Position numbers and translations under genes: made by a program. A stretch of DNA of 64,000 nt from Escherichia coli (GTDB lineage Bacteria > Pseudomonadota > Gammaproteobacteria > Enterobacterales > Enterobacteriaceae): assembly GCF_003790525.1 (NCBI RefSeq), contig NZ_CP033635.1, one strand, 5' to 3'. Below, piece by piece: positions 1 through 7,962 of this stretch. Every line of letters begins with the position of its first letter. Position 1 is the stretch's first letter. The notes under the pieces were generated by a model. The model did not search any database, was not told the origin of the DNA, and worked only from the letters and a program-made list of their open reading frames with translations.

Positions 1-109
1 AGCGGCGAAAGTTTACGGACATGAATATATAACGCGCAGGATTAAAGGGGTTACGCAAACCAACGTGACAACAACAGACGACTGCGACGCGTTTTTATAG
101 TTTTAGACA

Positions 110-340
110 AAAGCCCTCTACCCCTTCTACCTTAAGAAAATAATTACATATATTTCATGTTGATAGATTGGGTAGATGGCAGGTAGAAGGTACTTAAAAG
201 CCCTCTACACCCTCTACCATAATTCAGGGCATTTGTGAGGGGGTGGTAGATGGCAGGTAGAGGGCCAAAAAAGCCCTCTACCCCGCTGAAATCCGCGCCA
301 TTACTGACCTGAAAGATGATTGTGTAGAGAGGTAGAGGAG
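110..340. repeat. Array of about 10 copies of a 9-bp motif CCCTCTACC / GGTAGAGGG in both orientations; candidate iteron-type origin or regulator-binding array of the upstream island
   Basis: Motif copies read at about 113, 123, 172, 182, 201, 210, 245, 256, 274 and 331. Confidence 0.5.
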
Positions 341-386
341 GTGCACCACAACACAAAACTTTTTAAACACGAGGGTAAAAATAAAA

Positions 387-644
387 ATGCACACATCAGA
401 AAAATTTAACAATCAGAAGAAATCACATAACCGCGCCATTGACCTTACAGAGCACTGGCTGAGGGTGGCGATAAAAATCATCGACCGCAACGCGGGAGAA
501 GGATACGCGAAAGCGCATCCCGAACTGATTAGCGCATTCATGACCACAGCGGCGGCAAACTTTGCCACGCTGACACAACGGGAGATTGCCGAAGCGGAAC
601 AGGTAACAACCATCAACGTTAAAACCAGTGAGGTGGAATCATGA
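387..644 (+). CDS. Hypothetical protein (island)
   Basis: 85-aa ORF; stop overlaps start of the next ORF (ATGA). Confidence 0.4.
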   Translation: MHTSEKFNNQKKSHNRAIDLTEHWLRVAIKIIDRNAGEGYAKAHPELISAFMTTAAANFATLTQREIAEAEQVTTINVKTSEVES

Positions 645-1051
645 CAGCACAGATAGCGGCTTACGGGCGGCTGGTGGCTGACCCGCAGTTAAAGACCACC
701 AGCAAGGGGACACAAATGGCGATGGCGAGTATGGCGGTCCCCCTTCCGTGCAGCCAGGCAGATGACGGAACGGCGACGATGTGGTTATCTGTGCTGGCGT
801 TTGGCAGACAGGCCGAAGCACTGGCAAAGCACCGCAAGGGTGAACTCCTGAGCGTGGCGGGTAACATGCAGGTCAGCCAGTGGACCGGACAGAACGGGGA
901 AACGCGGCAGGGCTGGCAGGTTATCGCAGACAGCGTAATCAGTGCGCGGACAGTGCGACCGGGCGGAAAAACACGCAAAACCACAGGCGCACAGGGGAAT
1001 AAGCCACCAGCGGGAGGCGATGGCCCCTACGGAGATGATATACCCTTCTGA
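641..1051 (+). CDS. SSB-like single-stranded DNA-binding protein
   Basis: OB-fold-like N-terminus, Gly/Pro-rich linker and C-terminal DDIPF tail as in bacterial SSB. Confidence 0.6.
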   Translation: MTAQIAAYGRLVADPQLKTTSKGTQMAMASMAVPLPCSQADDGTATMWLSVLAFGRQAEALAKHRKGELLSVAGNMQVSQWTGQNGETRQGWQVIADSVISARTVRPGGKTRKTTGAQGNKPPAGGDGPYGDDIPF

Positions 1052-1068
1052 ATCAGGCGGGGAGCAAC

Positions 1069-1389
1069 ATGAACAACAGCACACCGAAGAACCGGACAAT
1101 AAGCGACGCGACAGCAGAAGAACTCGAGAGCAGGGGACTGTGGCGACGGGCTGCCAGAAGGTGGCAGGATGTGATGATTACTCTTCAGGAAGACAGGCAC
1201 AGAGAACTTGCGGCAATGAGAGCAAGGGAATGTATCAGGAAGGCAAAGCGCCCGATACCTGAAAACCGTTATGATGTTCACGCAGTCAGAAGGGCCGCAG
1301 ACAGGACAATACAACAGATGGGGCTACCGTCGCTTACTGATGAAATATGGCGTGATTACCCTGATAACGTAAATGATGACGGTTATTAA
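1069..1389 (+). CDS. Small regulator, possibly PerC-family
   Basis: 106 aa with AEELESRGLWRRAARRW motif recalled from the PerC/Pch family; memory-based. Confidence 0.3.
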   Translation: MNNSTPKNRTISDATAEELESRGLWRRAARRWQDVMITLQEDRHRELAAMRARECIRKAKRPIPENRYDVHAVRRAADRTIQQMGLPSLTDEIWRDYPDNVNDDGY

Positions 1390-1468
1390 CAGGCGGGGAA
1401 ACACGACACCAGCGGGAGCGACACGGGGTAGCAGATGCCGCTGGTGGAACAGCACAAAGGGGGAGAAC

Positions 1469-2053
1469 ATGACAAAGCTGACCATTAACCGAAAACCAAA
1501 AGGCATATACGGCACACCGCAGAAAAAGACGCAGGAGGCTGAACAGCCGGATAAAACCACACCAGCGCAAAAGCAGAGCCGCGAGCAGAAAACACAACAG
1601 AAGACGGCAGCAAAACGCAAATCAGAAAAGAGCCGGAAAAAAAATATCAGACGCGTTGAACGCCTTGCCGCGCTCTGGCCTGAACTTTTCAGCCAGGAAT
1701 CGCCCAGACCGCTTAAGGTTGGCATATTTGATGACCTGATGGAGGATATTACTGCGAGAGGTATTTCATTAGGTCAGGGAGCGCTTCGCGCAACGCTGGC
1801 GTATTATGTCAGTTCAGTGCGATATTACCGTTCCCTGATGGCTGGTGGCGTGCGTTACGACCTGAAAGGCCATCCGTGCGGGGAGGTGACACAGGAGCAC
1901 CAGTTGAACGCGGGGAAGCGACTGGATGAGATGAAGAAAAAACAGCAGGAGCGCAGAAACATGAAGGCAGAAAATAAGCATAACGGTAAGCCACCAGCAG
2001 GGCATAATATTATTCTGAAAAATGCCAGTTCCTCGGGCGTACGGAAAGCATAA
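1469..2053 (+). CDS. ProQ/FinO-domain RNA-binding protein
   Basis: RPLKVGIFDDL and YYVSSVRYYRSL...GGVRYDLKGHPCGEV closely resemble the E. coli ProQ N-terminal domain; start at ATG 1469 after a GGGGGAG SD (ORF track starts at 1373). Confidence 0.7.
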   Translation: MTKLTINRKPKGIYGTPQKKTQEAEQPDKTTPAQKQSREQKTQQKTAAKRKSEKSRKKNIRRVERLAALWPELFSQESPRPLKVGIFDDLMEDITARGISLGQGALRATLAYYVSSVRYYRSLMAGGVRYDLKGHPCGEVTQEHQLNAGKRLDEMKKKQQERRNMKAENKHNGKPPAGHNIILKNASSSGVRKA

Positions 2054-2077
2054 AACCCTGACCACATGAAGAGACGA

Positions 2078-2105
2078 AGCCGGAGTAGTCCGGCTTTATT
2101 TTTTA
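2078..2105 (+). terminator. Intrinsic terminator after the ProQ/FinO-like gene
   Basis: agccggagtagtccggct hairpin followed by a T-run. Confidence 0.6.
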
Positions 2106-2110
2106 TGGGT

Positions 2111-2225
2111 CCTTTCCGGCATGTGGACCCGTTACGGGGCGGCGACCTCGCGCAAAACAACTCCTTATGAAATTTTTACGGGAAATTCAGATCCGTTCTT
2201 CTTTTTTGTAAGTCATTGTGTATAT
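2111..2225 (+). other. Lambda-type cos site (cosQ-cosN-cosB); cosN GGGCGGCGACCT at 2137-2148
   Basis: gggtcctttccgg...gttacggggcggcgacctcgcg...tatgaaatttt...ccgttcttctt matches the phage lambda cos junction as recalled. Confidence 0.65.
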
Positions 2226-2340
2226 TGAATTTTATTTGTTCTGAGAAAGGATCTGATAAGGCTTCGTTTCGCCTGAAAAGGCAGTTTTAAGATCCTTTCT
2301 TAAAAAAACGGGTCATTTTCTTGCTGGAGGGGATGCTGGT

Positions 2341-2925
2341 GTGAGGGTTAACAAGAAAAAGCTGGCTGAGATTTTTGATGTTGATGTGCGGACTATATCC
2401 ACCTGGCAAAATCAGGGGCTGCCGCTGATATCAGGCGGCGGGAAAGGGAATGAAGCGATTTTTGATACGGGAAAAGCGATTGAGTGGTTCGCTCAGCGTG
2501 AGGCCGACATTGAAAATGAAAAACTTCGTAAGGAAGTCGACGATATGCGCGTGGCTGCTGAGTCGGATCTGCAGCCCGGTACGATTGATTACGAACGCTA
2601 CCGTCTCACAAAAGCACAGGCAGATGCGCAGGAACTTAAAAACGAGCGCGATCGCGGTGACGTGATTGATACAGAGTTTTGCATGTACGCGCTTTCAAAA
2701 CTGGCGAGACAGATTTCATCAATCATGGACAGCCTCCCGCTTACTATGCAAAGGAGCTTCCCACAGATGACCCCCGCCATGCTGGATGGCCTGAAAAAAG
2801 AAGTTGTCAGAGCCTGTAACGCATGCACAAAACTTGATGAAAACATCCCGCGAATGCTGTCCGATTATCTGATGGAAACTACCGGAAATGTGCCTGATAA
2901 GTTTCAGCCGGATAAAGACAAGTAA
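2341..2925 (+). CDS. Nu1-like small terminase subunit homolog; no large subunit follows
   Basis: MRVNKKKLAEIF...GGGKGNE...ENEKLRKEV...LQPGTIDYERYRLTKAQADAQELKN tracks lambda Nu1 along its length; GTG start. Confidence 0.75.
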   Translation: MRVNKKKLAEIFDVDVRTISTWQNQGLPLISGGGKGNEAIFDTGKAIEWFAQREADIENEKLRKEVDDMRVAAESDLQPGTIDYERYRLTKAQADAQELKNERDRGDVIDTEFCMYALSKLARQISSIMDSLPLTMQRSFPQMTPAMLDGLKKEVVRACNACTKLDENIPRMLSDYLMETTGNVPDKFQPDKDK

Positions 2926-3086
2926 CGTAGTGCACAATGACCGAAGCCAGTTTACTGACTGGCTTTCAGCGTTGCGCTGGTGGGCGTTATGCGTCAGTGA
3001 TGAACAAAAAACAATCGAAATCGACACCGAAAAATAAAACATCAAGTCATATCAATATATTGCATTGGTGGTGATAACGAATAAAA

Positions 3087-3467
3087 ATGCAAAAACTAGC
3101 CTTTTTCCGCGATGCTCCCGCCCCGTGGCAGGGCACCCCACAAGGAGGACCCGCCATCACTATGGAGGACATGACCATGACCATGACCGAGACCGAAGCG
3201 ATCGGGATAATCCGCAGTATTACCGGAATCAGCCAGCAGGCTGGCGAACAGGAGGCCACGCAGCCGGACAGCGTGATAGCCGAAAATTACGCGTGTGTTG
3301 TTGCTGAGGTGATGCGCCGTGATGGTATTGAGCTTAACGGCGTGGATATGCGCAACATACGAACCAGAGTCCTTGAGTTGCTGGCATACCGTCGCCGTTC
3401 TCAACAACGGAGGGAGAGCGCGAAAAACACTTATCAGTGGAAGAAGCCGGAACGGTTGCGGCGGTAG
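3087..3467 (+). CDS. Hypothetical protein; start uncertain (possibly near 3162)
   Basis: ORF track; several in-frame ATGs with SD-like sequences. Confidence 0.3.
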   Translation: MQKLAFFRDAPAPWQGTPQGGPAITMEDMTMTMTETEAIGIIRSITGISQQAGEQEATQPDSVIAENYACVVAEVMRRDGIELNGVDMRNIRTRVLELLAYRRRSQQRRESAKNTYQWKKPERLRR

Positions 3468-4488
3468 ATTCCTGATATTCAGGAAAACCACGAATCCGGG
3501 GGTTTTACTGGCGCGGTGTACACGGTGGAACGCATAGCGTTACCTGACTTATTGCATTGTAAAAAGTTAGAAAGGCACGGCCTGTAAGATGGGATGTTGT
3601 GAGTAGTTTAAAGCTACCCGCAAATTCTTTCGTTGTGCTGGCACAGGCGGTTAAACCGTCGGTAACTGGATAATCCCCACTGGGGGAAAAGCTGGCTACA
3701 TCCCTCACATCTGAGGACTGATAATGCGACATTGCGCTGGCTGGTGGGTGAGTTGCAGATTTGCAACTCGACCATGAAACTACGGAAACTACCCGTAGTT
3801 TGGGTAGTAAGAGTAACACCCAGATTTTGGGGCTTACTCGCGATACCCAAATAAAGGGTATCGGTGGAAGAAATATCGTTTCTCATATGTAAGTACCGAG
3901 GGCGGAATTCCGCCTTCGGTTACTTATTGTGCTCATTCACAGGGAGGGGCGGGTCAAATCTCTGTACCCTGACGTCTTCAGGACTGCCCGCCCCATCGAT
4001 TTTTTATACCCGCGAAAAATGAAAAACGCTTCACGCTGGTGGGCCTGATGCCGATATGGGGAGCCGCATACCGGAGAATATCCACCAGCACGGCAACAGC
4101 AGAATAGCCCCGACACAGAAAAACCACGAATATGGGGTTTTTGTTATGGCATGGTCATGATGACCGCCCCTGCTCTGAATGGTGGAAATCACCACGCAGA
4201 TCATCCACCAGCTTCATGACGGATAGCCGGAAAATGATAATGATTAAAGCGTGTTGATCTTTGTTCGCGGTTGTTCGATATTGTTCGTGAAGCGGTGTAG
4301 TTAATGGTGTAGTTAATATCACTGTTTTTGACGGGCTTGTTATTTGCAACATAATGAAAAATAAAGACTAATTAACTAAATGATATAAGATAGTTATCTA
4401 TCATGTGGAGTAGATTGGTCAGGCAAATAAGCTCTTGTCAGCGGCAGGGCGTTCTGCCGATAACCGTAACCGAAGATGATAACTGACA

Positions 4489-4809
4489 ATGGGTAAAACG
4501 AACGACTGGCTGGACTTTGATCAACTGGCGGAAGAAAAAGTTCGCGACGCGCTAAAACCGCCATCTATGTATAAAGTGATATTAGTCAATGATGATTACA
4601 CTCCGATGGAGTTTGTTATTGACGTGTTACAAAAATTCTTTTCTTATGATGTAGAACGTGCAACGCAATTGATGCTCGCTGTTCACTACCAGGGGAAGGC
4701 CATTTGCGGAGTCTTTACCGCCGAGGTTGCAGAAACCAAAGTGGCGATGGTGAACAAGTACGCGAGGGAGAATGAGCATCCATTGCTGTGTACGCTAGAA
4801 AAAGCCTGA
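4489..4809 (+). CDS. clpS: ATP-dependent Clp protease adaptor ClpS
   Basis: 106-aa translation matches ClpS. Confidence 0.95.
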
Positions 4810-7399: not shown

Positions 7400-7487
7400 T
7401 GGCGGTGAGGGGGGGATTCGAACCCCCGATACGTTGCCGTATACACACTTTCCAGGCGTGCTCCTTCAGCCACTCGGACACCTCACC
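7400..7487 (-). tRNA. serW: tRNA-Ser (GGA anticodon)
   Basis: Reverse complement gives GGTGAGGTGTCCGAGTGGCTGAAGGAGCACGCCTGGAAAGTGTG...GGTTCGAATCCCCCCCTCACCGCCA with long variable arm. Confidence 0.9.

Positions 7488-7740: not shown

Positions 7741-7962
<222 letters not shown>

Follow-up and report, generated by a model that had tools for sequence, protein, structure and literature searches.

Introduction

Phage-inducible chromosomal islands (PICIs) move virulence, defence and regulatory genes among enterobacteria, and the phages that mobilise them set their host range. For Gram-negative PICIs of the cos type, redirection by Rpp is the only packaging mechanism worked out so far: EcCICFT073 has no terS gene and encodes a 144-aa RppA, which is devoid of a C-terminus binding the large terminase (TerL) and must heterodimerise with the small terminase (TerS) of the helper phage (PMC6739421; PMC6092414). 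Here we have analysed a 64,000-nt stretch of Escherichia coli DNA (assembly GCF_003790525.1, contig NZ_CP033635.1; hereafter the window), the first 4.4 kb of which (1–4397) appear to be the right part, i.e., the replication, cargo and packaging half, of a 10.6-kb PICI of the EcCIIHE3034 family. This island belongs to a large E. coli PICI family carrying a complete Nu1-type TerS in place of Rpp, and its cosB together with the N-terminal half of its TerS appears to have been exchanged for that of a lambdoid prophage. Taken as a whole, packaging mechanism included, we regard this reading as quite likely.

The presence of terS in a satellite is not new in itself, since SatelliteFinder lists TerS as a core PICI component (PMC10085698) and terS homologues were noted earlier in 'some' Gram-negative PICIs (PMC6092414); in the open-access literature searched we found no paper with a functional description of a TerS-encoding PICI with a lambda-type cos. 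The same logic is known from Staphylococcus aureus pathogenicity islands (SaPIs): in SaPI1 and SaPIbov1 the satellite's own TerS captures the helper TerL, as proposed here for the island TerS, and SaPIbov5 carries a copy of the helper cos without the cognate terminase gene, a situation resembling the second cos of the window island (PMC6092414). Unlike the SaPIs, the window island has a Gram-negative host, relies on cos rather than pac for the TerS route, apparently combines both strategies and, in the window variant, has no genes for capsid-size remodelling.

The division of labour within TerS is known from lambda-21 hybrids, which assign the specificity for cosB to the N-terminal half and that for TerL to the C-terminal one (PMC9026076); why the R boxes of cosB and the recognition helix are the specificity determinants has been reviewed by Murialdo & Feiss (PMC9026076). 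In these hybrids from the Feiss laboratory the crossover falls inside terS and cosB travels together with the DNA-binding domain (PMC9026076), as in the window island. The hybrids are laboratory products of phage with phage, whereas the window island would be a natural product of satellite with prophage in which the partner TerL is not in cis.

Among catalogued elements, EcCIIHE3034 and EcCI18098 agree with the window island in insertion site, in the 11-bp att core (ATGATAGTTAT) and in size class (~10.5 kb). A common representative (L002) shares with it the integrase region, the single-stranded DNA-binding protein (SSB), the TerS C-terminal half, the open reading frame (ORF) downstream, a non-coding unit (unit B), the second cos and the arm repeats at 96–100% identity. 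The L002/EcCIIHE3034 type carries capsid, decoration and rdgR-like genes where the window island has PerC and ProQ/FinO genes, and combines a 'MKSHLMNKK' TerS N-terminus with a non-R-box cosB where the window island has the phage-derived cassette; relative to L002, the window island also contains an extra unit of ~240 bp (unit A). EcCICFT073 (L242) and the window island follow the same order (int, alpA, pri, ori, ssb, perC, cos, packaging protein, ORF of 93–94 aa), with RppA at the position of the window terS. Both have a lambda-like cosQ and cosN, and reliance on the TerL of a lambdoid helper is expected in both; they differ in that EcCICFT073 has a cosB without the R3-I1-R2-R1 set, whereas the window island has a cosB with three R boxes and a 194-aa TerS with a full C-terminal half.

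Small terminase and lambda-type cos

The packaging features of the island are the following.

2107–2148, + strand: cosQ-like block GGGTCCTTTCCGG (2107–2119) and cosN cohesive-end 12-mer GGGCGGCGACCT (2137–2148), aligned with lambda -32 to +12
2149–2635, + strand: phage-derived specificity cassette (by alignment), cosB plus TerS codons 1–97, 99.4–100% identical to lambdoid prophages L007, L008 and L009
2189–2199, + strand: R3
~2205–2240, + strand: I1-like AT-rich segment
2244–2254, + strand: R2 (inverted)
2290–2300, + strand: R1
2341–2925, + strand: small terminase TerS, chimeric by alignment, Nu1 family, 194 aa, GTG start (Pfam Phage_Nu1, PF07471)

The cosQ-like block and the cosN 12-mer are identical to lambda. 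Three R boxes with the consensus AGATCCkTTCT follow at 53–63, 108–118 (inverted) and 154–164 bp from the nick, compared with 54–64, 109–119 and 156–166 bp for the lambda boxes (GTTTCCkTTCT), so that the geometry is kept within 1–2 bp whereas the 5' part of each box differs from lambda. Read together, these elements make up what appears to be a complete cos of the lambda type (cosQ, a 12-nt cosN and a cosB organised as R3-I1-R2(inverted)-R1), for which IHF binding and cleavage are predicted. The original prediction, a model's reading of the bare sequence, had placed a canonical lambda-like cos beside a Nu1-like gene, and the identity of the 12-mer and the spacing of the R boxes bear it out.

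TerS aligns with PF07471 over profile positions 1–161 of 164 (E=3e-75), its residues 1–98 match the N-terminal structure of lambda TerS (chain 6hn7_B, E=2e-40), and the alignment with the TerS proteins of lambda, 21, phi80 and PhiR5_1 reaches the C-terminus. By these alignments it appears to be a full-length member of the Nu1 family, with TerL binding predicted. Rpp proteins, as delimited here, have 144–153 aa, a DNA-binding domain of their own type and no TerL-binding C-terminus, and they act in a heterocomplex with helper TerS. An Rpp identity was rejected: RppC (6hlk) matches just residues 4–54, the DNA-binding domain (E=0.008), and RppA of CFT073 is unrelated in sequence. Set against the known PICI redirection proteins, the Nu1-like gene of the original prediction thus encodes a full-length Nu1-family TerS and not an Rpp. 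It is also true, as had been noticed, that no large terminase, portal or head gene follows it, only a 94-aa ORF and ~0.9 kb free of PHROG, PADLOC or Pfam signal.

The island TerS has a recognition helix (VRTISTWQNQG) distinct from those of lambda (IRTIQNWQEQG) and phage 21 (PRTIERWQSQG), which fits the distinct sequence of the island R boxes. The usual PICI TerS N-terminus (L002 type) gave neither an RppC nor a Nu1 match in a PDB sequence search, and the sole PADLOC hit anywhere was a marginal helix-turn-helix match of TerS to mad1.

Origin of the cosB–TerS cassette

A 490-bp segment (2150–2640) matches, at 99.4–100% identity, prophages in strains NRZ14408, DG351-2 and GF60. The late operons of these donor-type prophages are complete (TerS, TerL, W, portal, protease, D, E and tail genes). 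Sliding identity passes from ~100% prophage to 100% PICI at about 2635, within the conserved AQADAQELKN codons, and the left junction falls inside cosN, in its right part. At the protein level, TerS residues 1–97 are 100% identical to the donor prophage TerS and ~37% identical to that of PICI L002, whereas residues 98–194 are 98% identical to L002 TerS and 36% to the donor. The spacer between cosQ and cosN (2120–2130) agrees with PICIs L002 and L010, not with the donor prophage; cosQ and cosN appear to be of PICI ancestry.

The segment is unrelated to its counterpart in PICIs L010 and L002. Two IMG/VR contigs, L010 and L011, have the same PerC–ProQ backbone at 98.4–99.3% identity together with the usual PICI cassette, differing only in 2153–2612, and are best read as the parental form of the island. 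The junction within TerS is in frame and all ORFs of the island in the window are intact. Among 5426 E. coli genomes the cassette was found in 18, and strain GF60 contains both the island and a donor-type prophage.

We conclude from these alignments that everything between the right half of cosN and TerS codon 97 was recently replaced by its counterpart from a lambdoid prophage of the phage-21 class, making TerS a natural chimera. The exchanged unit comprises a DNA site (cosB) plus the domain reading it (TerS residues 1–97). Such a clean natural exchange of cosB and DNA-binding domain with a prophage, the satellite C-terminal half being kept, parallels the lambda-21 hybrids that first served to map the terminase domains. 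A parent of the L010 type and the recombinant would also provide an isogenic pair for the study of terminase specificity and of satellite-helper matching.

C-terminal half of TerS and matching to large terminases

The PICI-type C-terminal half of TerS occurs in 56 IMG/VR loci (67–99% identical) and appears to be satellite-specific, because none of these loci has a TerL-sized ORF downstream. At least three N-terminal/cosB types are joined to it: the frequent 'MKSHLMNKK' type, a phage-21-type and the window cassette. The phage-21-type is represented by four IMG/VR PICI loci (L062–L065) whose 194-aa TerS couples the satellite C-terminal half to a helix of phage-21 type; their R boxes are also 21-type, and their cosN reads GGGGTACGTGTACGCGC instead of GGGCGGCGACCTCGCG. 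A homologous-protein search with the C-terminal half returned mostly partial fragments; the N-termini were surveyed in the IMG/VR loci.

Among phages, the PICI C-terminal half is closest to that of PhiR5_1 (54–56% identity), followed by lambda (46%), phage 21 (39%) and the donor (36%). The TerL of the donor is of the phage-21 class. PhiR5_1 (L003) has a TerL that is 95% identical to phage-21-class TerL (L004 and L007 were compared), except for its first ~60 aa, which are just 50–55% identical, and the C-terminal half of its TerS is likewise distinct. Among lambdoid phages, the N-termini of TerL thus appear to co-vary with the C-terminal halves of TerS.

Second cos of the SfI/SfV type

A further packaging site lies 1.6 kb downstream of the lambda-type cos.

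3940–4025, + strand: second cos, SfI/SfV/SfII/ST64B/phiP27 type (HNH-dependent), from a match to phage termini

In a sensitive search of 3470–4400 against phages, 83 bp (3942–4024) match the genome ends of SfII, ST64B and vB_EcoM-720R4 at 92–95% identity (E=2e-28); bp 1 of SfV aligns at approximately window position 3978, and the annotated 'cos-site' of phiP27 aligns to the 3940–4025 region. The 10-nt cohesive end TGCCCGCCCC, which was determined experimentally for SfI (PMC3636060), is present as an exact copy at 3985–3994 and is flanked by the inverted repeat GGGGCGGG (3945–3952) / CCCGCCCC (3987–3994). With this exact 10-mer in a conserved block of ~80 bp, the site appears to be a cos of the SfI/SfV type, and its cleavage in the island is predicted. 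In phiP27 and SfV, cos is situated between the HNH endonuclease gene and terS/terL, whereas in the window cos stands alone after a structured non-coding block. The terminases that go with this type of cos are HK97-like and associated with an HNH endonuclease; the island contains no terminase of that family, and the second cos could therefore work only cosmid-fashion.

Unit B and the second cos stand next to the same PICI module in 348 of the 5426 genomes as well as in the common PICI L002; the second cos is absent from EcCICFT073. No paper on an SfV-type cos in PICIs was found in the open-access literature searched.

Island identity, boundaries and distribution

The island is inserted between yljB/cspD and clpS, the start of which is at 4489. 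Its left half, which is missing from the window, is supplied by a full-length copy at 99.9% identity in strain TUM1886 (L001), where a tyrosine integrase and a regulator of the AlpA family are encoded along with a 582-aa primase, YlcI and genes of the Icd-like and DUF4222 kinds. The integrase gene (L001 7993–9231) matches phrog_1 (1e-67); an AlpA-type gene outside the window (L001 9651–9860, downstream of int) matches phrog_2790 (4e-17) and the AlpA structure PDB 8C3T (2e-7); and the primase coding sequence ('DNA primase family protein', L001 12352–14100) matches phrog_864 (1e-168). The 11-bp direct repeats ATGATAGTTAT are located at 7809 and 18389 of L001, 10.6 kb apart; the window itself includes only attR.

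4387–4397, + strand: attR core (AAGATAGTTAT; canonical form ATGATAGTTAT), from the attL/attR alignment of L001, L002 and the window
4294–4317, + strand: two tandem GGTGTAGTTAAT copies, putative integrase arm-type sites; a third copy is at L001 7957–7968, between the attL core and int

The att core ATGATAGTTAT and the cspD–clpS site are those listed for PICIs EcCIIHE3034 and EcCI18098 (Fillol-Salom 2018, Table S1, PMC6092414). Compared with the canonical ATGATAGTTAT in TUM1886 and FDAARGOS_1267, 2 bp are missing from the left edge of the window core (4385–4397), and excision of the window copy might be reduced. In attP, the GGTGTAGTTAAT copies flank the core on both sides; the same 12-mer pair is the listed 'att core' of EcCIDI14 (Fillol-Salom 2018, Table S1, PMC6092414). 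Directly 5' of the tandem pair there are three TTGTTCG repeats with 10-bp spacing (4261, 4271 and 4281; span 4261–4290). Together with the GGTGTAGTTAAT copies they are probably excisionase/AlpA sites and integrase arm-type sites, integrase binding being suggested by their arrangement.

The element thus has the composition of a Gram-negative PICI (Fillol-Salom 2018; SatelliteFinder): an integrase and att repeats bounding an element within the ~7–20 kb range, alpA downstream of int, a primase-replicase gene followed by an iteron origin, and none of the 'forbidden' TerL, portal, tail or lysis genes. In neither the ORF list nor the whole-island PGAP annotation is there a gene for TerL, portal, capsid, tail or lysis; with no TerL, portal, protease, major capsid or head-tail connector gene, it is not a capsid-forming PICI. 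The original prediction of the end of a satellite or PICI-like island abutting clpS is therefore upheld: int, alpA, primase and the matching att repeat are all present to the left in L001, the site is a catalogued one, and the lambda-like cos, Nu1-like gene, iterons, SSB, PerC and ProQ/FinO genes and clpS junction that it listed are at or near the positions it gave, while the second cos at 3940–4025 and the chimeric nature of TerS had escaped it. The element is of a known kind and from a catalogued family; what is new is the phage-derived cassette of cosB and TerS DNA-binding domain on a satellite TerS, along with two heterologous cos sites and PerC and ProQ cargo replacing capsid genes.

A megablast search with the 4.4-kb query against the 5426 complete E. 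coli genomes gave near-identical copies of the island (99.8–99.9%) in three genomes (Japan and Switzerland; poultry meat) and, in two more poultry strains, a variant with 98.8% identity over 90% of the query. Only 5 of the 5426 genomes carry 80% or more of this query, and partial relatives of the island are present in more than 2300.

Proposed packaging mechanism and alternative explanations

In the mechanism that we propose, a helper phage would trigger AlpA induction and excision of the island, and Pri-rep and SSB, starting at the iterons, would replicate it into concatemers. The winged-helix domain at the N-terminus of TerS would bind the island R boxes (AGATCCkTTCT) and the PICI-type C-terminal half would recruit the large terminase of the helper, leading to nicking of cosN and packaging of the island in helper capsids. 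Where a helper has a TerL that fits the PICI C-terminal half, the island TerS would act as a true small terminase. Since the island now has the cosB and the DNA-binding domain of one prophage lineage, the TerS of that lineage should also recognise the island; a donor-type helper, with its identical DNA-binding domain and cosB, would thus package it cosmid-fashion. SfV/ST64B-like helpers could in turn make use of the second cos. The co-residence of island and donor-type prophage in GF60 gives indirect support to the helper-dependent induction, packaging and high-frequency transfer that would be expected of a PICI. The cassette swap and the second, unrelated cos suggest how satellites broaden or switch their helpers.

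Extending this to the family, we tentatively suggest that cspD–clpS PICIs hijack cos packaging independently of Rpp, with the TerS C-terminal half as a TerL adaptor and the DNA-binding domain plus cosB as an exchangeable cassette. The window island would then be an instance of retargeting to a 21-class cassette, packageable (with the second cos taken into account) by at least two to three helper families, and unit B (190 nt) a possible new satellite non-coding RNA.

Several points weigh against the proposed mechanism. Whatever in it goes past the sequence anatomy, from induction and excision to TerS-TerL binding and packaging, is inferred, and for the left half of the island the only sources are near-identical copies in other strains. 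Between the PICI C-terminal half and that of any phage TerS, identity does not exceed 56%, and with the donor it is 36%; going by the lambda/21 precedent, the chimera might fail to dock on the donor TerL, and the classical interface with this TerL is probably not used. A terminator-like hairpin (2076–2097) stands before cos, and no promoter for terS was identified. The recombinant is rare (three genomes above 99% identity and two covering 90% of the query) and could be an evolutionary dead end; moreover, because of the 2-bp deletion in the attR core and of one frameshifted small ORF in the TUM1886 copy, the window copy may excise poorly.

Some of the same observations would suit a TerS acting mainly against the helper, i.e., occupying phage cosB or forming mixed oligomers with phage TerS and, unable to recruit a 21-class TerL, poisoning packaging with an Rpp-like outcome. 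Rpp proteins block phage by engaging the DNA-binding domain of TerS (PMC6739421), the island TerS is 100% identical to the donor in its N-terminal half, which serves DNA binding and dimerisation, and just 36% in its C-terminal half, the donor TerL is of the 21 class with N-termini of TerL co-varying with TerS C-terminal halves, and island and donor-type prophage are co-resident in GF60. We nevertheless consider interference unlikely as the main role of the chimera, compatible as it is with the packaging mechanism proposed above. The island keeps a complete cosQ–cosN–cosB of the same specificity, so that a block at cosB would hit the island too, and loci in which TerL is always missing conserve the PICI C-terminal half together with its 13-aa tail, which suggests a positive docking function.

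It is improbable that the window copy is an immobile relic, in which the cassette swap was a one-off event of illegitimate or homologous recombination with no adaptive value and no excision or transfer ensues. The carriage of at least 80% of the query by just five complete genomes, the deletion in the attR core of the window and, in the TUM1886 copy, the frameshifted ORF and an oddly long 'Icd-like' fusion coding sequence would all agree with decay. Yet the ORFs in the window are intact with an in-frame TerS junction, both crossovers fall exactly at functional module boundaries, and the 99.8–99.9% copies in three strains from Japan and Switzerland, with the two poultry variants, suggest spread or a successful clone.

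Finally, a lambdoid prophage remnant without late genes, or a P4-like satellite, is very improbable in spite of the lambda-type cos, the Nu1-family gene and the Icd-like, DUF4222 and large primase genes that also occur in P4-like elements: the left half (int, alpA, pri-rep) lacks lambdoid immunity, replication, lysis and tail genes, psu, sid, delta and epsilon are absent by PGAP and PHROG, the cos sites are of lambda and SfV type with no P2-type cos, and the att repeats, 10.6 kb apart, have the site and core of catalogued PICIs. In particular, the left half in L001 and the att core follow the catalogued Gram-negative PICI layout, and this excludes a lambdoid prophage whose late genes were simply deleted, the circumstance under which the original prediction would have failed.

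Replication origin, SSB and accessory genes

All genes of window 1–4400 are on the + strand. Apart from the packaging module, the following features were assigned.

1–100, + strand: 3' end of the primase (pri-rep) gene, 99.9% collinear with L001 14001–14100
109–340, no strand: replication origin, an array of ~10 CCTCTACC-like iteron boxes, the pairs of which are direct and inverted in turn
387–644, + strand: conserved hypothetical protein, 85 aa (phrog_1231, E=2e-46), in most related PICI loci
641–1051, + strand: SSB (phrog_44, 2e-38; TIGR00621, 55.4 bits, above the curated cut-off)
1069–1389, + strand: PerC-family regulator, accessory (phrog_994 and transcriptional-activator PHROGs; PGAP name PerC)
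1469–2053, + strand: ProQ/FinO-domain protein, accessory (Pfam ProQ PF04352, E=2e-26)
2076–2097, + strand: terminator-like hairpin after the ProQ gene, a 9-bp stem followed by ATTTTTT
3183–3467, + strand: conserved PICI gene, 94 aa from the PGAP start, the ORF being open from 3087 (phrog_1561, E=4e-49)

Counting matches to CCTCTACC with one mismatch over the whole 64-kb window, 10 of the 36 boxes fall within 115–338 (224 bp) and 26 in the other 63.7 kb, a clustering far beyond chance. The array has the position of ori in PICIs, immediately 3' of pri-rep (PMC6092414). PerC genes are common PICI cargo (PMC11773190; PMC6092414, Table S1). The ProQ/FinO-domain protein also matches the NCBIfam ProQ and FinO models, at scores below their cut-offs. 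The 94-aa product of 3183–3467 has no Pfam match, and a homologue of this ORF stands after rppA in EcCICFT073.

Structured non-coding block, Chi sites and neighbourhood

Between the 94-aa ORF and the second cos there is a block with a strong tendency to fold.

3470–3930, + strand: conserved foldable non-coding region, with unit A at ~3480–3720 and unit B at 3738–3930, the latter ending in a 17-bp hairpin (3889–3926)

Over its full length the + strand folds with a z-score of -8.4 against shuffles; unit B by itself reaches -8.7, and the - strand -5.7. Within the block are a perfect palindrome (GAGTTGCA-N4-TGCAACTC) and four ACTAC(C/G)(C/G) repeats that interleave. The block is mosaic among relatives, and unit A is absent from L002. 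Within unit A, short stretches (3481–3539 and 3594–3630; 80–95% identity over 36–59 nt) match KilA-N/antirepressor regions of Stx-converting and other lambdoid phages, and these may be gene remnants or recombination scars.

Searches for a known identity were negative: an Rfam scan of 1–4600 at E<=1 gave one chance snoRNA hit and no match in 3470–3930, ARAGORN gave no tRNA or tmRNA in 3000–4500, ORFs of at least 40 aa in 3470–4400 had no PHROG or PADLOC match, and the 16-mer GTAGTTTGGGTAGTAA, scanned against genome contigs, gave only chance matches in unrelated phyla. In a covariation analysis of 45 unique IMG/VR variants of the structured region, positions were almost only invariant or changed on one side. 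A small toxin peptide (the 26-aa ORF in unit B) was rejected, as the ORF is not conserved and has a premature stop in the 81% variants. The unit B repeats were also rejected as integrase arm sites, the arm-type 12-mer GGTGTAGTTAAT being different and situated at 4294–4317 and beside int, and so was a link between ProQ/FinO and the structured units, ProQ being present in just 3–4 loci and unit B widespread.

The Chi octamer GCTGGTGG, counted in both orientations, occurs 11 times in 1–4398 vs. six times in the other 59.6 kb of the window, and 19 times in the whole 10.6-kb island (L001 7809–18399). Chi sites are enriched about 8-fold. For comparison, 168 octamers of the same composition have a mean count of 0.57 in the island, with a next best count of 7; related PICI loci have a mean of 0.8 Chi per kb, and the phage-derived cassette (2149–2635) has none. 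This enrichment hints at protection from RecBCD, in that Chi may shield linear or concatemeric DNA of a satellite lacking gam. No paper on Chi enrichment in PICIs was found in the open-access literature searched.

At the right end of the island, a sigma-70-like promoter match (4328–4355; TTGACG-16-CATAAT, 10/12) is directed towards clpS, with the start 134 bp downstream; as a consensus match only, it could keep clpSA expressed after insertion. Further on, clpA is followed directly by tRNA-Ser (GGA) and infA in the window (7400–7487). In TUM1886, which is not the strain of the window (L001/L238 comparison), an island of ~43 kb lies between clpA and tRNA-Ser, carrying an integrase, a TOTE-like system, a type I restriction-modification system with embedded DarTG, CbtA/YeeU and antirestriction genes, and in FDAARGOS_1267 a type I-F CRISPR-Cas locus follows clpA. 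By this comparison, the region downstream of clpA is a hotspot.

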